Assembly (NCBI RefSeq): GCF_039541115.1
Contig: NZ_BAABFP010000005.1
Span: 496,001-560,000 of the forward strand
Length of the DNA stretch: 64,000 bases
Reading direction: 5' to 3'
Origin: Angustibacter luteus
GTDB taxonomy: Bacteria; Actinomycetota; Actinomycetes; Actinomycetales; Angustibacteraceae
Shown: positions 19,407 to 32,526 of the stretch, piece by piece
Position numbering within the stretch: the first letter of the stretch is position 1
Layout of the letters: each line of letters begins with the position of its first letter
Program-made: the position numbers and the translations under genes
The notes under the pieces: model-generated
The model's database searches: none
What the model saw: the letters and a program-made list of their open reading frames with translations, nothing else
What the model was told of the DNA's origin: nothing

Positions 19407-19433
19407 GGATCGGCACCGTGCTGGCCGAACTTA
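19407..19433 (-). promoter_or_regulatory. Sigma-28 (FliA/WhiG)-like promoter
   Basis: Minus strand TAAG-N15-GCCGATCC versus consensus TAAA-N15-GCCGATAA. Confidence 0.55.
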
Positions 19434-20399
19434 ACTGTCGCGTTCGCCGTAGCCCTCGAGTGCGGCGGCCGCGACGCGGCGGACGTCGTCCGCCAGCTCG
19501 GGTGGGTCGACGATCCGTCCGCTGCCGCCGAGCCGCAGCGCGAGCTGGCGTAGCCACGCCAGGTCGCCGGTGCGCAGCGTGACCACCAGGTCGCCGTCGC
19601 TCGTCTCGGTCACCCGGTCCACCGGGTAGTAGTCGACGACCCAGCGGGCGGACGGGCGCAGCGCGAGGGTGACCACGTGGTCGTCCGGGCCGGGGGCGAA
19701 CAGGTCCCCGTCCAGGTCGCGGCCCTGCGCCTCGGCGGGCGGGGTGCCGTCGACGTCCAGGATCCGCGCGCTGACGACCCGGTCCAGCCGGAACAGCCGC
19801 ACCCCCTCGGCGCGGTGGCACCAGCCCTCCAGGTACCAGCGGCCGTCGACGTGCAGCACCCGCATCGGGTCCACGTCGCGCTCGGTGGTCTCGTCCCGGT
19901 GCGGCACCAGGTAGCCGAGGTGCAGCCGGCGGCGCAGCCGCAGGGCGTCCTCGGCGGTGGTCAGCACGTCGGCGTCCGCGACCTGGCCCAGGTCGACCCG
20001 GACCGATCCGGCGGGCTGGCCGGCCGCGCCGGCCGCGGCCTCCAGCTTGACCAGGGCGCGCCGCACCGCGTCGCGGTCGCCGACGCCGGGCACGTCCATC
20101 AGGGTGCGCAGGCCGACGATGAGGGCCAGCGCCTCGTCCACGCCGAGCCGCAGCGGTCGCGAGATCGCGTCGGCGTTGCCGAGGTAGACGAAGCCCTCCT
20201 CCCAGTCGGCCTCGATGAGGTCGTCGGGCAGGTGACCGGGCAGGCCGCACACGAAGAGCAGCTCGAGGTCCTTCACCAGCTGGCGCTCGTCGACGCCGAA
20301 CTCGGCGGCGGCGTCGGCCAGCGGTACCCCCTGGTGCGCGAGCAGCCACGGCACCATCGCGAGCAGCCGGGACAGCCGCTCGGTCGCGGACTCGCTCAC
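19431..20399 (-). CDS. pafC: WYL-domain transcriptional activator PafC
   Basis: ERLSRLLAMVPWL, CGLPG, RDVDPM, WYLEGWCH, FRLDRV. Confidence 0.92.
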   Translation of the reverse strand: MSESATERLSRLLAMVPWLLAHQGVPLADAAAEFGVDERQLVKDLELLFVCGLPGHLPDDLIEADWEEGFVYLGNADAISRPLRLGVDEALALIVGLRTLMDVPGVGDRDAVRRALVKLEAAAGAAGQPAGSVRVDLGQVADADVLTTAEDALRLRRRLHLGYLVPHRDETTERDVDPMRVLHVDGRWYLEGWCHRAEGVRLFRLDRVVSARILDVDGTPPAEAQGRDLDGDLFAPGPDDHVVTLALRPSARWVVDYYPVDRVTETSDGDLVVTLRTGDLAWLRQLALRLGGSGRIVDPPELADDVRRVAAAALEGYGERDS

Positions 20400-21361
20400 C
20401 CGGACACCTCCGCCACCGCTCGCAACCGGCGCACCACCGACGCGCGCAGCTCGTCCGGTTCGATGGCCAGCACCCCGGCGCCCAGGCCGACGAGCTCCTC
20501 GGCCAGCGACTCGACGTCCCCGAACTCGACCTCCACGACGTCCCAGCCGTCGTTCCCAGGCGCGATGGACTTCGCGCGGCGGCGCAGCGACTGCGCGGCC
20601 GTCGACCGGGCCCGCACCTGAGCGAGCTCCAGCGGGCGGTCCTGCACGCTCTCGCCGACCATGACGCGCGGCACGTGGTCGGCCGGTACCTCGTACTCCC
20701 CCGGCTCGCCGATCCGGACGACGTCGCCCTCGACGCGCGACAGCCGGTAGACGCGTGCTGCGCCTCGGGAGCGGTCGTGACCGGTCAGGTACCAGCGGCC
20801 GTTGCGGCTCGTGACTCCCCACGGCTCCACCTGGCGCTCGGCGACCTCGCCGGTCCGGGCGGTCCGGTACGTGAACCGGACCGGGACGCGGTCGCGGACG
20901 GCGCCCCACAGCGCGTCGAACGCAGGCTCGGCGGTGCGGATGCGCGGCTCCAGGCCGATCAGCGAGCCGTCGTCCTGCGGCGCACCGAGGGCGGTGAGCT
21001 TGGTCAGGGCGCGGGTCGCGGGTGCGGCCAGGCTGGCCTGCTGCCAGACGCGCGAGGCCAGGCCGAGGACGGCGAGCTCGTCCGGTTCGAAGACGACCTG
21101 CGGCAGCGCGTACGCCTCGCGGTCCACCCGGTAGCCGATCTCGTCCTCGAAGAGCGCGTCGTCGCTGCTGGTGACCAGCGGGATGCCCAGCTCGCGCAGC
21201 TCGTCCTTGTCGCGCTCGAACATGCGCTCGAACGCCTCGGTCGAGGTGTTACCGGCGTACTGGGGCACGGCCTGGCGGATCTGCGCCTTGGTGAGCGGGC
21301 GTGCGGTGCTCAGCAGGCAGATGACGAGGTTGAGCAACCGCTCGGTCTTGATGCTGGACAT
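20396..21361 (-). CDS. pafB: WYL-domain transcriptional activator PafB
   Basis: KTERLLNLVICLL, FERMFERDKDELRELGIP, VEPWG, WYLTG, YRLSRV. Confidence 0.92.
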   Translation of the reverse strand: MSSIKTERLLNLVICLLSTARPLTKAQIRQAVPQYAGNTSTEAFERMFERDKDELRELGIPLVTSSDDALFEDEIGYRVDREAYALPQVVFEPDELAVLGLASRVWQQASLAAPATRALTKLTALGAPQDDGSLIGLEPRIRTAEPAFDALWGAVRDRVPVRFTYRTARTGEVAERQVEPWGVTSRNGRWYLTGHDRSRGAARVYRLSRVEGDVVRIGEPGEYEVPADHVPRVMVGESVQDRPLELAQVRARSTAAQSLRRRAKSIAPGNDGWDVVEVEFGDVESLAEELVGLGAGVLAIEPDELRASVVRRLRAVAEVSG

Positions 21362-21418
21362 GGTCTCCTTCCCGGTGCGGACGGTACCGGACGACGGGGG
21401 TCTGGCTACCCTCGGCAC

Positions 21419-22522
21419 GTGACGATGGTGCGGTGGCGGCGCGGGACGGTCGTCGAGGTGGTTCGGCGGTGGACCGGGACGGTCGAGCTGGTGGTCGCGG
21501 TGGACGACGCGGCAACGTCGGTGCGGGCGCTGGCCTTCCCCGAGCTGGTCGGCGAGCCGGAGGTCGGCGACGAGGTGCTGCTGACCACGTCGGCCCTCGA
21601 GCGCGGGCTCGGCACCGGCGGCTTCGCGATGGTCGCCGCCGTGCCCGGTCGCCTGCCGGTCACGGCGGAGGACGCCGATGAGGCGGAGCCGGGGCACCTG
21701 GTGAAGGCGCGGTACACGCCCCTGCAGGCGATGGTCCTGGGCGTGGACGAGCAGGAGTCCCCGCACCACGAGGTGCTCCGCGACGCGGACGACCTCGCCG
21801 GGATGCCCGTGGTCGTGGCCGACCTGCACTCCGCCCTGCCGGCAGTCGTCGCCGGGCTGCGCACGGTCGCGCCCCACGCCCGGGTGGCCTACGTGATGAC
21901 CGACGGTGGCGCGCTCCCCGCGTGGTTCTCCCGCACGGTGGACGAGCTGCGCGCCGCGGGTTGGATCGACGGGTGCGTGTCCGTCGGGCAGGCCTTCGGC
22001 GGGGACGTCGAGGCCGTGACGGTGCACACCGGGCTGCTGGCCGCGCGGCTGGTGATGGGTGCTGATGTGGCCGTGGTCGCCCAGGGGCCTGGCAACCTCG
22101 GCACCGGGACGCGCTGGGGCTTCTCCGGGGTCGCCGCCGGCGAGGCCGTCAACGCGGCCGCAGTCCTCAACGGGCGACCGGTGGCGAGCCTGCGGGTGTC
22201 CCAGGCGGACGCGCGGGAGCGGCACCTCGGGGTGTCGCACCACAGCCTCACCGCCTACGGGCGGGTGGCGCTCGCGCCGTCCGACGTCGTCGTCCCCCTG
22301 CTCGGCGGCGAGCTCGGTGAGCGCGTCCGGCGGCAGGCCGCGGTGCTGGGCGCCCCGACGGGGCGGCACCGGCTCGTCGAGGTCGACTGCGACGGGCTGC
22401 TCGCGGCGTTGCGCGCGGCGCCCGTCCGGTTGTCCACGATGGGGCGCGGACTGGACGAGGACGCCGCCGCGTTCGTCGCGGCGGCGTCCTCCGGCGTGCA
22501 CGCGGCACGCCTCATCTCGTGA
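21419..22522 (+). CDS. DUF3866-type conserved protein
   Basis: LGTGG, GHLVKARYTPLQ, DLHSAL, YVMTDGGALP, GVSHHS, TMGRG. Confidence 0.8.
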   Translation: MTMVRWRRGTVVEVVRRWTGTVELVVAVDDAATSVRALAFPELVGEPEVGDEVLLTTSALERGLGTGGFAMVAAVPGRLPVTAEDADEAEPGHLVKARYTPLQAMVLGVDEQESPHHEVLRDADDLAGMPVVVADLHSALPAVVAGLRTVAPHARVAYVMTDGGALPAWFSRTVDELRAAGWIDGCVSVGQAFGGDVEAVTVHTGLLAARLVMGADVAVVAQGPGNLGTGTRWGFSGVAAGEAVNAAAVLNGRPVASLRVSQADARERHLGVSHHSLTAYGRVALAPSDVVVPLLGGELGERVRRQAAVLGAPTGRHRLVEVDCDGLLAALRAAPVRLSTMGRGLDEDAAAFVAAASSGVHAARLIS

Positions 22523-22525
22523 TCG

Positions 22526-22906
22526 TCAGCTGACGTCGACCAGGTCGACGACGAAGATCAGCGTCTCGCCGCCCTTGATCGCGCCGCCCGCGCCACGGTC
22601 GCCGTAGCCCAGGTGCGGCGGGATCGTGATGGTCCGGCGTCCGCCGACCCGCATCCCCTGCAGCCCCTGGTCCCAGCCCTGGATGACCTGGCCGACGCCG
22701 AGTTGGAAGCGCAGTGGTTCCCCGCGGTTCCACGAGGCGTCGAACTCCTCGCCGGTGGAGTGCGCGACCCCGACGTAGTGCGCCAGCACCGTGCTGCCGG
22801 CCACCGCCTCGGTGCCCTCGCCGACGATCTGGTCCTCGAGGACGAGCTCCGTCGGCGGCTCGTCACCGGGGAACTCGATCTCGGGCTTGGTGCGGTCGAA
22901 CGCCAT
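22526..22906 (-). CDS. FKBP-type peptidyl-prolyl isomerase
   Basis: HYVGV, EEFDASWNRG, VIQGWDQG, IPPHLGYG. Confidence 0.95.
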   Translation of the reverse strand: MAFDRTKPEIEFPGDEPPTELVLEDQIVGEGTEAVAGSTVLAHYVGVAHSTGEEFDASWNRGEPLRFQLGVGQVIQGWDQGLQGMRVGGRRTITIPPHLGYGDRGAGGAIKGGETLIFVVDLVDVS

Positions 22907-22956
22907 GGCGGGTCCTCTCGTTGAGCGAGTCGGAGTGGGTCGTGCGGGTGGTTGCG

Positions 22957-23934
22957 TCAGTGCGCGTCGAGGATGTCGACGACGAACACGAGGCTGTCGG
23001 TGCCCTTGATCCCGGCGTTGGCGTTGCCGGCCTTGCCGTAGCCGTCGGCCGGCGGGATGACCAGGAGGACGCGGCTGCCGATGGTCTGGCCCGTGAGGCC
23101 CTTGTCGAAGCCGGGGATGGTGCCGCCGGTGCCGACGGGGAAGTCTGCGGTGGTGCCGCGGGAGAACGAGGAGTCGAAGACCTTGGTGGAGCCGAAGATC
23201 TGCCCGACGTAGTTGACGGTGACGGTCTGCCCGGCCTTGACCGCGGCGCCCTTGCCCTTGATGAGCGGCTGAGCGATGGTCTTGGTCGGGGCCTTCGCGC
23301 CGGCGACCATCGTGATGGTCGGGGCCTTGCCGTCGCCGTTGTCCTTCACGGTGGGCAGGCCGGCCGGCGGGGTGACGGCGTCACCGGTCGGCTTGGTCAG
23401 CGGGGTGCTCGCGGACTTCACGTCGAGGACGAAGATCAGGCCGTCCTCCTTGGCGAAGCCGAGCTCGGCGTTGGTCTGGTCGGCGAAGCCGTCCTGCGGC
23501 GCGATACCGGCCAGGACGCGCGAGCCGACCTTCTGCCCGATCAGGCTGACGGCCAGGCCCGGCATCAGCTGCTGCGGGTCCGCCACGAAGGTGGCTGGGG
23601 TCTTGCCGAACGAGGTGTCGGCCTCCTTGCCGTCCTTCGCGTTCAGCAGGACGTAGTCGACGGTGACCCGCTGCCCGGAGGTGACCTTGGCGCCGGTGCC
23701 CTCGGAGATGACCTTGGTGCCGGTGCGGGTGAGCACCGTCGGGGTCGAGGCCAGCTTGACGGTCGGCTTCTCGCCGAACTTGCCGGTGACCGTCACGTCC
23801 TTCAGTGCGGCCGGCGTGCCCTGGGCAGCCGTGGAGGACGACGAAGCGGCCGGCTTGTCAGCACTGGCGCAGCCCGCGAGGAGCAGGGCGGGGACGGCCA
23901 GGGCAGCGGCGAGTCGGGGCAGGGCAGGGCGCAC
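22957..23934 (-). CDS. Two-domain FKBP-type PPIase lipoprotein
   Basis: Lipobox LAGC; FDSSFSRG, IPGFDKGL, IPPADGYG. Confidence 0.9.
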   Translation of the reverse strand: MRPALPRLAAALAVPALLLAGCASADKPAASSSSTAAQGTPAALKDVTVTGKFGEKPTVKLASTPTVLTRTGTKVISEGTGAKVTSGQRVTVDYVLLNAKDGKEADTSFGKTPATFVADPQQLMPGLAVSLIGQKVGSRVLAGIAPQDGFADQTNAELGFAKEDGLIFVLDVKSASTPLTKPTGDAVTPPAGLPTVKDNGDGKAPTITMVAGAKAPTKTIAQPLIKGKGAAVKAGQTVTVNYVGQIFGSTKVFDSSFSRGTTADFPVGTGGTIPGFDKGLTGQTIGSRVLLVIPPADGYGKAGNANAGIKGTDSLVFVVDILDAH

Positions 23935-24033
23935 GAGGATGAACCTTTGGTCGGGGGATGTCGAGACAGCCTAACCCGCCTCCCTGGGAGTTCCCTTGGA
24001 GCGGTGTGTCCGAAACGTGGAGAACCCGCGGGC

Positions 24034-25395
24034 TCACATGCTCGCGATGAGCCGGTCCACCCGCTCGTCCGTGCTGGCGAACGGGTCCTTGCAGAGCACC
24101 GTGCGCTGCGCCTGGTCGTTCAGCTTCAGGTGCACCCAGTCGACCGTGAAGTCACGGCGCTGCTCCTGCGCCCGGCGGACGAAGTCGCCGCGCAGCTTCG
24201 CCCGGGTGGTCTGCGGCGGCACCGACTTGGCCTCGAAGATCTCGATGTCGCTGGCGACCCGCTCCACCCGGCCCGCGCGCTCCAGCAGGTAGTAGAGGCC
24301 CCGACGGCGGTGGATGTCGTGGTAGGCGAGGTCCAGCTGCGCGATCCGGGGGTGGGACAGGTCCATCCCGTGCTTCGCCTGGTACCGCTCGATCAGGCGC
24401 AGCTTGATGGCCCAGTCGATCTCGCGATCGATCAGCGACAGGTCGGCCGTGTCGACGGCGGTCAGCGTCCGCCGCCACAGCTCGAGCACCGCCTTGTGCG
24501 ACGGGCTGGTGGGGCCGCGGCGGTCGACGAAGTCCTGCGCCCGGTCCAGGTACTCGGTCTGGATCTCCAGCGCGGAGAGCTCTCGGCCGTTGGCCAGCCG
24601 GACCTTCTTGCGTCCGGTGACGTCGTGGCTGATCTCGCGGATCGCCCGGATCGGGTTCTCCAGCGTGAGGTCCCGCATGACGACGCCGGCCTCGATCATC
24701 TGCAGCACGATGTCGGCGGAGCCGAGCTTGAGCAGTGTCGTGCTCTCGCTCATGTTGGAGTCGCCGACGATGACGTGCAGGCGACGGTGGTGCTCGGCGT
24801 CCGCGTGCGGCTCGTCCCGGGTGTTGATGATCGGACGCGAGCGGGTGGTGGCGCTCGACACGCCCTCCCAGATGTGGTCCGCGCGCTGGCTGACGCAGTA
24901 GATCGCGCCACGAGGGGTCTGCAGCACCTTGCCCGCTCCGCAGATGATCTGCCGGCTGACCAGGAACGGGATCAGCACGTCCGACAGGCGCTGGAAGTCG
25001 CCGTGCCGGGAGACGAGGTAGTTCTCGTGGCAGCCGTAGCTGTTGCCGGCCGAGTCCGTGTTGTTCTTGAACAGGTAGACCTCGCCGGCGATGCCCTCGT
25101 CCTTCAGGCGCTGCTGCGCGTCGGCGACCAGGCCCTCGAGGATCCGCTCCCCCGCCTTGTCGTGCACCACGGCCTGGCGCAGGTCGTCGCACTCCGGTGT
25201 CGCGTACTCGGGGTGCGAGCCGACGTCCAGGTACAGCCGCGCGCCGTTGCGCAGGAAGACGTTGCTGGACCGGCCCCAGGACACCACGCGGCGGAACAGG
25301 TAACGGGCCACCTCGTCGGGGCTCAGGCGGCGCTGACCTTCGAACGAGCACGTCACCCCGTACTCGTTCTCGATCCCGAAGATACGTCGGTCCAC
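24034..25395 (-). CDS. pafA: Pup--protein ligase
   Basis: [47 protein letters not shown]. Confidence 0.97.
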
Positions 25396-25429
25396 GGGGC
25401 TCCCTCCTGCGCTCGGGCCTTCACCCACC

Positions 25430-27104: not shown

Positions 27105-27860
27105 TCAGCTGTCGTCCGGCTGACCCGGCCGCTCGTCGACGTGCGGGACGTCGCTCGTCGGGTCGCTCGGGCTCAGCAGCCGCTCCAGCAGGTCACCGGT
27201 GATCCGGCGGAACAGGCGGCGGTCGCGCTGCCGGTCCAGCACCGCGGCCTCGATGACCTCGGGGCCGAGGACGCGCGGCTCGCCGCCGGCCGGGTCGACC
27301 CCCAGCAGCTCGACCGCCAGCGACAGCGCCTCACCCAGGGTCAGGTCCGGGCGCCAGCGCTCCTCGAGCCCGGTGATGATCGCCTCAGGCTGACCGCCCA
27401 TGGCGACGAAGCCCTGCTCGTCCGCGACGGAGCCGTCGTAGGTGATCCGGTAGATCTGGTCGCCCTCGGGCCGCTGGGCGACCTCGGCGACGACGATCTC
27501 GACCTCGTACGGCTTGGACTCCTGGGTGAACACGGTCCCGAGGGTCTGCGCGTAGGCGTTGGCCAGGCCGCGGGCCGTCACGTCGCTGCGGTCGTAGGAG
27601 TAGCCGCGCAGGTCGGCGTACCGGACTCCGGCCACCCGCAGGTTCTCGAACTCGTTGTACTTGCCGACAGCGGCGAAGGCGACGCGGTCGTAGATCTCGC
27701 TGACCTTGTGCAACGCCCGCGAGGTGTTCTCGGCGACGAAGGCGATCCCGCCGTCGTACCCCAGGACGACGGCCGACCGGCCGCGCGCGATCCCCTTGCG
27801 CGCGTAGTCGGCCCGGTCCTTCATGAGCTGCTCGGGCGAGACGTAGAACGGCATGCTCAT
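27105..27860 (-). CDS. prcA: 20S proteasome alpha subunit
   Basis: [35 protein letters not shown]. Confidence 0.97.
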
Positions 27861-28714
27861 CGGTCGCTCCCCTCCCCGCGCTGGAGTGCGCCGCCGGGAT
27901 CGCCTCGGCGCCCGGCGACCACCTGCTGGACGACCGCACCGAGGGTGTCGTCGTCCACCCGCCGGTAGCCCTCGACGTCCACGACGCCGACGACGGGCCA
28001 GATCTGCCGGTTGAGGTCCGGGCCACCGGTGGCCGAGTCGTCGTCCGCGGCGTCGTAGAGCGCCTCCACAGCGAACCGCACCGCCTGCTCGGACGTCAGG
28101 CCGGGGCGCCACATCTTCTTCAGGGCGCCGCGGGCGAACAGCGAGCCCGAGCCCACCGAGTGGTGGTGGTGCTCGCGGTAGCAGCCGCCGGTGACGTCGT
28201 AGCTGTAGATGCGACCCTGCCGGACGTCGACGTCGTAGCCGGCGAACAGCGGGACCACGGCGAGTCCCTGCATGGCGAGCCCGAGGTTGTTGCGGAGCAT
28301 GGTCGCGAGCCGGTTGGCCTTGCCCTCCAGGGAGAGCAGCGTGCCCTCGATCTTCTCGTAGTGCTCGAGCTCGACCTGGAAGAGCTTGACCAGCTCGATG
28401 GCGAGGCCTGCGCTGCCGGCGATGCCGACGCAGGAGTACTCGTCGGTGCCGAACACCTTCTCGATCTCGCGGTTGGCGATCATGCTGCCCATCGTCGCCC
28501 GGCGATCGCCGCCCATCACGACGCCGCCGTCGAACTCGACGGCCACGATCGTGGTGCCGTGCGGGATGTCTGGCACGGTGCCCGGGGGCAGCGCGCGGCC
28601 CGCCGGGAGCATCGTCGGGGCGTGCGCGGACAGGAAGTCGGTGAAGGACGACGACCCCGGCGAGGTGAACGCGCGTGGGAGTCGGCCGGCCGGATCGCGC
28701 TGGTCTGGGCTCAC
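27857..28714 (-). CDS. prcB: 20S proteasome beta subunit
   Basis: Propeptide [16 protein letters not shown] autocleavage site, [18 protein letters not shown]. Confidence 0.96.
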
Positions 28715-29454
28715 CTGGGCGACCCTACCCGGCGGTGGATCACCCGCTCGATCATCGACTCCACAACGGAGTCCGGACGCCGCCAGGACCGCGATTGCCA
28801 GTCGACGTAACCAGGTAGCACTACCGACGGAGCCGTCAGCGTGCCGTTGAGGTACTCGGCGGCGCGATCGAGGCGCGTCACCTCGTCGGAGAAGTTGCCC
28901 AGACCAGCGTTGCAGGTGAAGCACAGCAGAGCACGCACTCTGCCGGTGGCATGGTCGTGATCGACGTGGGCGTTCTCTCCCAAGGGCCGGAGGCAGATCG
29001 GGCAGAGACCAGCCTGGCGCGTGTGCATGAGATCGGCATCCTCAGCCGTGATGCCGTACCGCCGGATCAGGTGGTACGAACGAGATCCGCCGTGGAGTCG
29101 TTCCTTGGACGCCCTACCGCGTTGGTTGTGATGAAGCTTGCAGTACACGCCGAAGCCGGACACCGTTCCTCGATGTCTGGGAAACGCGTCCTCGCTTCTG
29201 AACTCTTCACAGTCCGGACACCATCGCTGGCCATCGGGGGCGTCGCGCGCCTCGCGCACCTTCTTACCCGCAGCGGCACGGCGCCTTCGATAGCTCGCCT
29301 TGTTGATGGCTTGAAAGCAATCTCGGCAGTACTCAGCCAAACCGTCGCCACGAGACGCATTGTTACCGAAGCTGGCGATGGGCTTCTCCTGGGTACAACG
29401 GCGGCACAACTTCGAGAGAACCACCGGCCTCCGTTCGTCCGAGGCCTCGTTCAT
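28711..29454 (-). CDS. Endonuclease VII-family (His-Me) nuclease with N-terminal Zn-finger motifs; candidate free-standing homing endonuclease
   Basis: CPIC...[40 protein letters not shown]; visibly more AT-rich codons than neighbours; overlaps pup stop and prcB start. Confidence 0.85.
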
Positions 29455-29648
29455 TGGCCGCCCTTTTGCACGAAGCTGCGCACAAAATCTTCGGCATTGG
29501 CTTCCAAAACTTCGTCGATCTCGTCCAGGACGGAGTCGATGTCGTCGTCCAGCCCCTCCTTGGTCGCCGCACCGGCCGGGATGGGCGCCGGGGCCTCGTC
29601 GGGCTCGTCGTCGCGACGCTGCGGGCGCTGCTGCTCCTGACCGGGCAT
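29451..29648 (-). CDS. pup: Prokaryotic ubiquitin-like protein Pup
   Basis: [34 protein letters not shown]. Confidence 0.97.
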   Translation of the reverse strand: MPGQEQQRPQRRDDEPDEAPAPIPAGAATKEGLDDDIDSVLDEIDEVLEANAEDFVRSFVQKGGQ

Positions 29649-29810
29649 GACGTCCTCCTGGGGGTGAGTGCTCCGAGTTCCACCCTAGTCGCGGGTGCTG
29701 ACACCCGTGTGGTTCAACGCGGGATCTCGCCTGGCGAGCCACCCGCGCGCGCGATCCAACACAGGCGTATCGTCCCGCATGGCAAGACCACCATCCCGAG
29801 GAGTGAGATC

Positions 29811-31034
29811 GTGCACGCGTCGCGCCAGCGCTGGCTGGTCCTCGCCGTCGGGCTGTTCGCCCAGACGTCGGCGTCCAGCCTGGTCTACGGCGTGCCGTTC
29901 CTCGTCCCGGCGCTCCGCGACCAGGACGGGCTCACGCTCGCCCAGGCCGGCGCCCTCGTCTCGGCCCCCGTCACCGGACTGCTCGTCGCCCTCATCGCCT
30001 GGGGCGCCCTTGCCGACCGGTACGGCGAGCGCGTCGTGATGGCCAGCGGCCTCGCCATCACCACCGTGGCCACCGCCGTGGTGGGGGTGAGCGAGCCGAC
30101 GCTGCGGACCGCGGCCGCCTGGCTCTTCGTCGCGGGCATCGGCGGCGCCAGCGTCAATGCGGCCAGTGGTCGCCTCGTCATGGGCTGGTTCGCCCGCGAC
30201 CAGCGCGGCCTGGCCATGGGGATCCGGCAGACCGCCCAACCGCTCGGCGTCGCGGTCGCTGCCGCCACGCTGCCCAGCCTCGCCGCCGACGTCGGTGTCA
30301 CCCGTGCGCTCCTGCTGCCTGCGACCCTCTGCGGGCTGGCCGCGCTGCTGGTCACCGCCCTCGCCGTGGACCCTCCCCGACCGCCGCTCGACGCCGACGC
30401 ACCGAAGCCCGCGTCCCCCTATCGCGAGCCCGTGCTCTGGCGGCTGCACACCGCCAGCGCGCTGCTGGTGCTCCCCCAGTTCGCGATCGCCGCCTTCTCC
30501 GTCGAGTACCTCGTCCGCGAGCAGCACTGGCACGCGGCCAGCGCCGGGGCGTTCGTCGCCGCGCTGCAGGTCTGCGGGGCGGTCGGACGCATCGGCACGG
30601 GGATCTGGTCCGACGCCGTCGGCAGCCGGCTGCGGCCGATGCGCCAGCTCGCCCTCGCCAGCGCGACCGTGATGCTGGTTCTGGCCGCCGGCGACGCCTG
30701 GGCGGGGTGGCTGGCGGTCGCCGCCATCGCCATCGGGTCGATGGTGACCGTCGCGGACAACGGCCTCGCGTTCACCGCCACCGCGGAGATCGCTGGCCAG
30801 CGCTGGGCCGGCCGCGCGCTGGGCATCCAGAACACCGGGCAGAACGTCGTCGCCTCCGCCGCTCCCCCGCTGCTGGGTGCCCTGGTCGGCGCCCGCGGCT
30901 ACGCCGTCGGCTTCGCGGTCGTCGCGCTGTTCCCGCTGGTCTCGTACGTCGTGACTCCGGTGGCCGCCGAGGACCGGCGCCGGGCGCGGGCCGAGCGACG
31001 CGAACCGGTCAGCGGGCCGCCAGCGCGGCCATGA
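29811..31034 (+). CDS. MFS transporter
   Basis: [26 protein letters not shown], about 12 TM helices. Confidence 0.9.
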
Positions 31035-32526
31035 GCTCCTCCGCGGTGTCGCTGGCGTCGATCAGCGCACCGACGACGTCCCGGCCGCCACGAGCCGGCT
31101 CGAGCATCGGCACGCGTTGCAGGGAGTCGCGCCCGGGGATGTCGAAGATGACCGAGTCCCACGAGGCCGCGGCGACGTCCTTGCCGTACTTGGCCAGGCA
31201 GCGGCCGCGGAAGTACGCCCGGGTGTCCTCCGGCGGCTCCTCGACGGCCAGGGCCACCGCGTCGTCCGGCACCAGCTGCTCCATGCGTCCGCGCGCCACC
31301 AGGCGCTGGTAGAGCCCCTTCTCCGGCCGGACGTCGGTGTACTGGACGTCGATCAGCCCGAGCCTCGGGTGGTCCCACTCCAGGCCCTCGCGCTCGCGGA
31401 ACCCTTCCAGGAGAGCCAGCTTCGCCACCCAGTCGAGCTCGCGCGAGCACTCCATCGGGTCCCGCTCGAGTCGGGTCAGCACCGACTCCCAGCGCTCCAG
31501 CACCTCGACGGTGTCGGCGTCGACGTCCGACCCCATCCGCTCGTCGACGTACGCCCGGGCCTGCTCCAGGTAGGCCCACTGCAGCTGGACGGCGGTCAGC
31601 TTGGTCCCGTCCCGCAGCGTGAGCATGGTCTTGAGCGTCGGGTCGTGCGAGACCGCGCGCAACGCGGCGACCGGCCGGTCCACGGTGAGGTCCCGCTTCA
31701 GCGCCCGGTCCTCGACCATCGCCAGCACCAGGGACGTCGTCCCGAGCTTGAGCAGGGTCGCGACCTCGGCCAGGTTCGCGTCGCCGATGATCACGTGCAG
31801 CCGCCGGTACTTGTCTGCACTCGCGTGCGGCTCGTCCCGGGTGTTCACGATCGGCCGCTTCAGCGTGGTCTCCAGCCCGACCTCCACCTCGAAGAAGTCG
31901 GCGCGCTGGGTGAGCTGGTAGCCGGCCTCCTCGCTCTGCGCGCCCAGGCCGACCCGCCCGGCGCCGCAGAACACCTGCCGCGAGACGAAGAACGGCACGA
32001 GGTGCCGGACGATGTCCGCGAACGGGGTGGCCCGGCTCATCAGGTAGTTCTCGTGGGTCCCGTACGACGAGCCCTTGCCGTCGGTGTTGTTCTTGTAGAG
32101 GTTGACCGGGCTCAGCCCCGGGGTGCTCGCGATGGTCCGCACCGCCGACTGCATGATCCGCTCCCCCGCCTTGTCCCAGCGGACGGCGTCCCGCGGGCTC
32201 ATCACCTCCGGCGAGCTGTACTCCGGGTGCGCGTGGTCGACGTACAGCCTTGCGCCGTTGGTCAGGATCACGTTGGCGAGGGTCGGGTCCTCCTCGTCGG
32301 TGAGCTGCGAGGCGTCGGCCAGGGCCCGGCTCATCTCGAAGCCGCGGGCGTCGCGCAACGGCGCCTCGTCCTCGTAGTCCCAGCGGGCGCGGCCGGCGCG
32401 GTTGCCGAGCGGCTGCGCGTACGCGTTCACCACGAGCCCCGACATGATCATCGGGTTCGCCTCCGGCGCCCCGGGCTCGGAGATGCCGTACTCGGTCTCG
32501 ATCCCCATCACCCGTCGCACGCTCAC
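31009..32526 (-). CDS. dop: Pup deamidase/depupylase
   Basis: [43 protein letters not shown]. Confidence 0.97.

Follow-up and report, generated by a model that had tools for sequence, protein, structure and literature searches.

A candidate intronless homing endonuclease in the Pup-proteasome operon of actinomycetes, moving between species with a rewritten end of pup

Intronless homing has been described for co-infecting phages and plasmids (in the sections of PMC2988022 and PMC13565253 drawn on here). The DHHRN motif of one group of nucleases, CX2-4C...DHDH...R...CX2C-N, was defined by Fang et al. 2018 (PMC6083498), and Table S1, among the parts of that paper used here, includes the Streptomyces coelicolor protein SCO1645 as an Endo VII-motif protein with motif position 'C'. 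The main text of PMC6083498 contains no match for proteasome, pup, Streptomyces or Actino. Our wider search, which covered openly accessible literature, returned no description of a link between pup and a nuclease and no main-text match for 'SCO1645'. The DHHRN motif family, intronless homing and the motif listing of SCO1645 are already known; in the literature searched we found no case of such a gene held at pup on the chromosome throughout a class, with a recoded tail that moves along with it.

Here we report that in many soil actinobacteria a nuclease in the proteasome operon swaps between species together with a rewritten pup end, as would be expected of a selfish gene that cuts ordinary pup and spares its own. 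We describe the locus from the window, the whole stretch of 64,000 nucleotides that was analysed. Its gene order on the minus strand is dop, a divergent membrane-protein gene, pup, the nuclease gene, prcB and prcA, with pafA further on, and the nuclease ATG overlaps the pup stop codon (CAA TGA). The features are as follows.

31009-32526, minus strand: dop.
29451-29648, minus strand: pup, 65 residues ending in GGQ (Pfam Pup, PF05639, E 8e-25).
29451..29513, minus strand: pup tail, the A/T-shifted last 20 codons and stop, GC 0.52 against 0.67 in the preceding 60 nt.
28711..29454, minus strand: free-standing nuclease gene, 247 residues, the sole PF02945 match genome-wide.
29128..29406, minus strand: two N-terminal CxxC...YC zinc-finger-like repeats of the nuclease, about residues 17-46 and 79-109.
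28846..29067, minus strand: Endo VII / DHHRN beta-beta-alpha-metal domain of the nuclease, residues 130-203 (PF02945, E 1e-21).
27857..28714, minus strand: prcB, the proteasome beta subunit (PF00227), whose GTG start overlaps the nuclease stop.

The divergent gene between dop and pup (29454-31034, plus strand) is putatively MFS-like, a name given from its appearance; its frame has no stop going backwards across antisense pup as far as 29454, which is probably a shadow extension. At 19431-25428 on the minus strand lie what we take to be pafA, then two FKBP-like genes and pafB/pafC-like genes.

The DHHRN motif is complete in the window nuclease (C151xxC154, D165-H166-D167-H168, R174 and C178xxC181-N182) and is C-terminal (residues 130-203 of 247), the arrangement of endonucleases and not of resolvases. 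Motif and placement together argue that the protein belongs to the DHHRN (Endo VII-motif) endonucleases. Of 145 nuclease cores, 141 retain the whole catalytic D-H-x-H/R/N motif, in a DHDH or DHCH form. The zinc-finger-like repeats have invariant Cys and Tyr columns in alignment A1, give weak matches to the Stc1 zinc finger and are modelled mostly with pLDDT 84-94; they are probably DNA-recognition modules. The structure model of the whole window nuclease (mean pLDDT 78, pTM 0.50) has its best fold matches in Hpy99I (E 1e-5) and T4 Endo VII (E 6e-3), with TM only 0.17-0.20 over the query.

Other forms of the protein occur. Loci L350, L353, L354, L360, L361, L366 and L367 encode longer nucleases with duplicated catalytic or zinc-finger parts and two HMM stretches, and similar forms of 360-400 residues occur among P0002-P0005. 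At L003, a congener and the host sister of the window, the nuclease ends after DHDH...VRG and is without the CxxC-N half of the active site; the pup tail there has 6 of 20 A/T-ending codons despite the truncated nuclease.

The nuclease stands behind pup in all of the best 80 of 391 confirmed genome matches, which include Micromonospora, Actinoplanes, Streptomyces, Streptacidiphilus and Geodermatophilus. Exactly one strong match (1e-30) is present in 48 of 301 class genomes, and none of the 30 loci returned from this search is without pup; in the order to which the window belongs, a strong full-length match was found in only 7 of 301 genomes. A search of representative proteins, genomic context not included, gave 1002 matches at 1e-30. 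Three congeners of the window (L005, L006 and L008) have no nuclease, and their pup stop overlaps the prcB GTG. Across 262 unique pup loci the nuclease is intact in 145, decayed in 52 and without trace in 65. The corresponding numbers in the genus g107 are 36, 43 and 20, and there the nuclease state changes 16 times on the host tree (unrooted counts in which gain and loss are not separable), with only the 3' third kept in 37 of the 43 remnants. Every Micromonospora locus was chosen by nuclease similarity, so that genus offers no empty control. The nuclease is an optional, single-copy, fixed-site gene behind pup that is often decayed.

We found no close phage or plasmid carrier of the nuclease, the best candidate being about 33% over most of the length. 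Distant homologues elsewhere (L038-L050, L132-L143) have few scorable GC-coded upstream genes and gave no clear parallel. Sequencing runs all had shares under 0.1, showed no joint across the nuclease and were uninformative.

Three other arrangements were considered for this gene and not supported. Measured against pup, the nuclease reading frame is found in each of the three phases (56/48/41), and a pup-nuclease frameshift fusion was rejected. The same spread of phases, together with complete pup and prcB genes, speaks against a group I intron- or intein-encoded homing endonuclease. An Hpy99I-like type II restriction-modification system would have an adjacent methyltransferase, but in the window the nuclease directly adjoins pup on one side and prcB on the other.

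An earlier note on this DNA had pointed to the end of the window pup, where 9 of codons 46-65 end in A or T against 3 of codons 1-45. Our recount agrees (Fisher p=6e-4, for a 45/46 boundary picked post hoc). One of the nine has an explanation of its own, since the last pup CAA supplies the A of the nuclease ATG. No 20-codon stretch with more than four A/T-ending codons occurs in dop, prcB, prcA or pafA of the window, and genome-wide at least nine among the last 20 codons is found in 20 of 3809 gene-like ORFs, a tally made with a crude ORF filter in which several of the 20 resemble shadow frames. The note had called the change a synonymous recoding; the wobble shift stands, but the tail is not purely synonymous, codons 46 and 50 encoding Glu and Ala where the three nuclease-free congeners have Asp and Ser. 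Compared with the 10 family relatives scored, the window pup is 82-91% identical in its 5' part and 68-77% in the last 60 nt, and nucleotide identity falls exactly where the Pup protein is most conserved. We take the window pup tail to be a probable co-converted, self-type target region.

The comparison that the note had proposed, with pup genes lacking the adjacent nuclease, came out in its favour. These genes mostly keep GC-ending 3' codons, with a mean of 1.9 A/T-ending codons in the last 20 (n=63) against 4.25 beside a decayed nuclease (n=52) and 7.1 beside an intact one (range 3-13, n=142). The pooled means cover 257 loci, five with prcB AT3 of at least 0.15 having been removed (L015, L239, L248, L320 and L321) and 67 without a computed prcB AT3 baseline having been kept unfiltered. 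Every intact locus of the pooled set has at least three such codons. Among the removed loci, L015 is nuclease-free with 11 of 20 A/T-ending codons in an AT-richer genome. Within g107, 11 phylogenetically independent pairs gave 6.8 in the same direction and 0.2 in the opposite one (median p=0.016, range 0.004-0.45), and in the non-intact loci the A/T count climbs with remnant length (rho 0.30, p=0.02, n=61). The sharp switch at about 29513 described earlier holds for the window locus but not across 88 nuclease-bearing loci, a Micromonospora-heavy sample, in which the A/T excess is a gradient with its onset at codons -23 to -17 and its peak at -6 to -4. The shift is one-sided, confined to the pup side, with prcB bins near background.

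Two further codon patterns were seen. In g107, the share of A/T-ending codons at prcB positions about 120-180 after Thr1 is higher where the nuclease is intact than where the locus is empty (up to 0.18 vs 0.05), an excess that may be phylogenetic. Very rare TTA leucine codons occur in the pup tails of ten nuclease-bearing loci (L336, L339, L349, L351, L356, L366, L374, L376, L073 and L124).

We found that the nuclease and the pup tail share a history that differs from that of the host. When five dop-defined clades are imposed, the nuclease rejects four (AU p 2.5e-4 to 1e-22) and prcB rejects none, and equally close g107 host pairs have nucleases that differ by either 6-8% or 43-45% of residues. 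In partial Mantel tests, the synonymous distance of the pup 3' end follows the nuclease given the host (r=0.42 for 46 Micromonospora, 0.30 for 36 g107; p=0.002, which is the floor of 500 permutations on pairs that are not independent), and its correlation with the host given the nuclease is 0.08 in either genus. The dop distance tracks the host in both genera, as does the pup 5' part in g107; in Micromonospora the 5' part leans weakly to the nuclease (r 0.19). We also compared 21 trios, picked without using pup and not independent because members are shared. Informative sites at pup -210..-91 are 246 host-like vs 47 nuclease-like, those at -60..-1 are 130 nuclease-like vs 76 host-like, and sites become host-like again near the prcB start; these switches delimit a mobile unit from roughly pup codon -20 to the prcB start. 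All members of one nuclease clade of 7 carry GTG AGG TCN, whereas different alleles are found in their host sisters. The final ~60 nt of pup thus move with the nuclease, and the 5' part of pup stays with the host. The earlier note had proposed a co-conversion tract, which predicts just this co-transfer, and the start of the mobile unit falls at the boundary it had drawn. The pattern at the pup tail alone does not prove break-initiated conversion.

Gln and Glu are both common as the C-terminal residue of Pup, whichever group is considered, and a change of nuclease lineage often goes with a switch between them; the deciding base follows the nuclease in 11 of 16 informative trios and the host in 5. 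The window nuclease itself groups with two other genera (SH-aLRT 97), to which the Ala at codon 50 of the window pup is common, and the window prcB groups with congener L003. A lateral origin of the window's own nuclease was set aside, as holding it with its congeners is not significantly rejected (AU p=0.46 and 0.096).

Passive linkage would also account for co-transfer of the pup tail. By this account the nuclease is an accessory host gene, for defence or DNA damage and under the pup promoter, that is spread by ordinary homologous recombination and leaves pup uncut, the nearest 60 nt hitchhiking with it and so escaping the GC pressure on core genes. Divergence agrees with this, the pup-3' dS and the dS at free sites of the nuclease being of the same order (0.58 and 0.46, respectively, over 17 Micromonospora pairs; 0.35 and 0.68 over 4 g107 pairs), as do a PafBC-like promoter upstream and a nuclease that is expressed and under purifying selection (dN/dS about 0.1). 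However, the A/T shift is one-sided, and at 2-fold and 4-fold sites it exceeds that of the nuclease body in all three groups, A at 2-fold purine sites being 0.28-0.49 in the pup tail vs 0.15-0.20 in the body. Nor do ORFs upstream of other AT-richer DNA in genome G000 have a 3' shift (19 ORFs, mean 1.16 vs 1.53). Keeping to a fixed position, being single-copy and decaying repeatedly are traits more usual in homing genes. We regard passive linkage as unlikely.

No single recoded cassette is present among these loci. The alleles differ between nuclease clades and also between close species, L082 and L099 at 8 of 20 codons and L062 and L092 at 9 of 20, despite near-identical nucleases, and the idea of one recoded, immune pup copy is not supported. 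Such variability could be a mutagenic scar, in which the enzyme repeatedly nicks or cuts near its own locus and error-prone repair leaves A/T-biased changes that survive only at synonymous sites; differences in the Micromonospora tails are indeed more numerous than an amino-acid-matched expectation (89 vs 55). Yet this excess shrinks once the constrained 3' windows of the nuclease are left out (free windows 0.20-0.29 vs 0.265). In g107 there is no such excess (0 of 4 pairs), and alleles are stable within nuclease clades. We consider a scar very improbable. A hypermutable tail as such was rejected on the ground that the apparent excess comes largely from those constrained windows. In Micromonospora (L060-L130) the 3' end of the nuclease appears to overlap the prcB propeptide region and is synonymously constrained, the prcB start being estimated near +630 and the nuclease stop near +708.

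A single invariant immunity position was sought across the recoded tails and rejected: no invariant protective position or window was found in them, and A/T counts are not under-dispersed. No immunity signature thus emerged, and the placement of the cut at 29460-29515 in the earlier note finds no backing.

The pup end might instead be A/T-rich for a regulatory reason, selected as a promoter, as a BldC/Lsr2 landing zone or as an open translation-initiation region that tunes nuclease expression. The A/T signal does fade on nuclease decay. In S. coelicolor, SCO1645 is transcribed and ribosome-occupied, and a TSS assigned to it at 1759947 lies 46 nt before the pup stop, inside the pup tail (supplements of PMC4895711, in the portions used here). 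Its abundance is low, however, 6 against 253+168+115 (536) for the three TSSs of pup, and the SCO1645 mRNA is not below pup mRNA in the same portions of PMC4895711. A sense TANNNT occurs in 13 of 145 intact and 4 of 63 empty tails and is absent in the window, so a canonical -10 made by recoding was rejected; of the internal promoter that the note had offered as an alternative, there remains this one low-abundance S. coelicolor TSS, with no -10 enrichment in intact tails.

The note's other alternative, an unstructured translation-initiation region, fared worse. The offset at which the nuclease starts, from -1 to +162, has no bearing on the A/T tract (rho -0.07, p=0.44), and start-region accessibility is unchanged by GC back-coding in g107 (0.382 vs 0.384) and Micromonospora (0.435 vs 0.438), with a small gain over back-coding in the mixed group (0.439 vs 0.418). 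A translation-initiation role was rejected. An SD-like AAAGGAGG is common at the loci and would suit regulation.

Half-sites resembling the optimised BldC site AATTCGGACA (as given in the part of PMC5859096 used here) also speak for a regulatory tract. Of 46 Micromonospora loci 43 have one just past the pup stop, as do 26 of the 63 other intact loci, whereas the background rate is 18 in 1699 windows. The half-sites read ATGTCCG(A/T)TT or its reverse, in both orientations, 0-45 nt past the stop at the nuclease start (L060-L130 and others); they also occur in 4 of 43 empty loci, for example L007, L010 and L380. Such a half-site could be a host-regulator site or an operator of the nuclease itself. 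It is absent, though, in all 36 intact g107 loci, and none was seen past the pup stop of the window. A/T tracts, moreover, co-occur no more than in a shuffle in g107 and Micromonospora, and above it in the mixed group (p=0.005). A BldC array running through pup was rejected since two of the three groups show no co-occurrence of tracts and g107 lacks the half-site. Taken as a whole, we consider a regulatory origin of the tract decidedly unlikely.

In g107 loci such as L220, L265 and L327 a palindrome, CCTTCGAATCGAAGG, is found just past the pup stop; by a strict pattern it is present in 16 of 36 intact, 7 of 43 decayed and 0 of 20 empty loci. Its variants are non-compensatory, and it resembles an operator in the DNA more than a hairpin in the RNA.

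Two promoter-like elements were noted in the window.

29682..29703, minus strand: TGTCAG-N10-TAGGGT, a match to the PafBC (DNA-damage) promoter motif, upstream of pup.
28722..28727, minus strand: TAGGGT, a -10-like hexamer still inside the 3' end of the nuclease gene, 7 nt upstream of the prcB GTG.

The PafBC-type motif, in the form given in the section of PMC8151990 used here, lies upstream of pup in 91 of 99 g107 and 0 of 46 Micromonospora loci and is common in family f1. It would drive pup and, via read-through, the nuclease, and, more speculatively, could time nuclease expression with DNA repair. The TAGGGT hexamer is predicted to be a leaderless prcB promoter carried by the insert, and a similar hexamer precedes prcB in related loci. 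In S. coelicolor the prcB TSS lies within SCO1645, in the 3' part that remnants retain (supplement of PMC4895711, portion used here). A captured prcB promoter would explain why the 3' stub of the nuclease is kept.

Taking these results together, we think it moderately probable that this chromosomal nuclease is a free-standing (intronless) homing endonuclease with both its target and its self-immunity in the 3' end of pup. The locus combines an optional gene, empty alleles, lateral movement, co-transfer of the flank and intact, decayed and absent states. Cleavage, a cut site and immunity are what we infer for this enzyme from sequence. In such a scheme, a selfish site-specific nuclease would always occupy the same position within the Pup-proteasome operon on the chromosomes of many Actinomycetes. 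Its zinc-finger repeats would recognise a long target within the conserved, GC-coded 3' end of pup, the Endo VII domain would cut or nick there, and repair from a nuclease-bearing copy would import the nuclease together with the donor pup tail, as far as about the start of prcB. Differences at wobble positions would shield the donor tail from its own enzyme, and the same differences would strip homology between cut and insert and so force repair through the nuclease. As the insert may carry its own prcB promoter, a 3' stub would be kept after decay, and the tail would then drift back to GC codons and leave the site open to re-invasion.

Since SCO1645 is both transcribed and ribosome-occupied, the enzyme, if active, has to leave its own chromosome uncut. 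Genome G000 contains no copy of an 18-mer taken from the GC-type pup tail of the congeners, so a long-site cutter would be harmless there, which is compatible with homing and is not evidence for it. Against homing, ordinary recombination that erodes the borders of any accessory gene can also leave short co-transferred flanks. In phages, the cut sites of free-standing enzymes are usually at a distance of hundreds to thousands of bp (section of PMC2988022 drawn on here), so the target of the nuclease may lie elsewhere.

Homing might go further still. A class-wide chromosomal gene drive played out in synonymous space at one locus is possible, if doubtful. Nuclease lineages would then carry their own wobble-coded pup tails, cut those of one another and displace one another; after decay, GC-biased host codon pressure would rebuild the target and restart the cycle. 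The element would ride a DNA-damage promoter, its stub would be protected by the carried prcB promoter, and the shuffling of the terminal Gln/Glu of Pup would be a side effect.

If the homing interpretation is true, intronless homing extends to bacterial chromosomes, at one core-operon site across several actinomycete orders, with a target gene marked by a readable synonymous signature, and the long-annotated hypothetical gene SCO1645 gains a function. We take SCO1646 to be the pup gene of S. coelicolor, in part from the description of mutants. The region deleted in S. coelicolor pup/proteasome mutants, SCO1643-1646 in the excerpt used here, includes SCO1645, which also carries the prcB TSS; this bears on how those mutants are read. 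More generally, an A/T-shifted, protein-conserved gene end beside an optional nuclease would offer a screen for GC-rich genomes, and more than 100 natural enzyme-allele pairs would be available toward a zinc-finger recognition code.

Among known systems, Hpy99I and T4 endonuclease VII are the top structural matches and share the catalytic motif, at the low TM over the query given above. The pup nuclease differs in that the interval from pup to prcB leaves no space for a methylase gene, and in that its motif is C-terminal, which is not how resolvases are arranged (PMC6083498, parts used here). F-CphI and the DHHRN enzymes of the same parts of PMC6083498 are alike in their C-terminal Endo VII motif (CxxC, DHDH, R, CxxC-N) and in being free-standing genes beside a conserved gene. 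F-CphI, however, is carried by a phage and relies on an intron to protect its self allele, whereas the pup nuclease is chromosomal and has no intron, and its self-protection would come from wobble changes. The seg and mob genes of T4 resemble the pup locus in having an optional nuclease between conserved genes, co-conversion of the flank and substitutions in the neighbouring gene that separate self from non-self (sections of PMC2988022 and PMC13565253 drawn on here). They differ in their nuclease fold, in acting between co-infecting phages or plasmids and in cut sites that are often far from the gene, whereas the pup nuclease takes with it a flank of about 60 nt, on the bacterial chromosome and in several orders.
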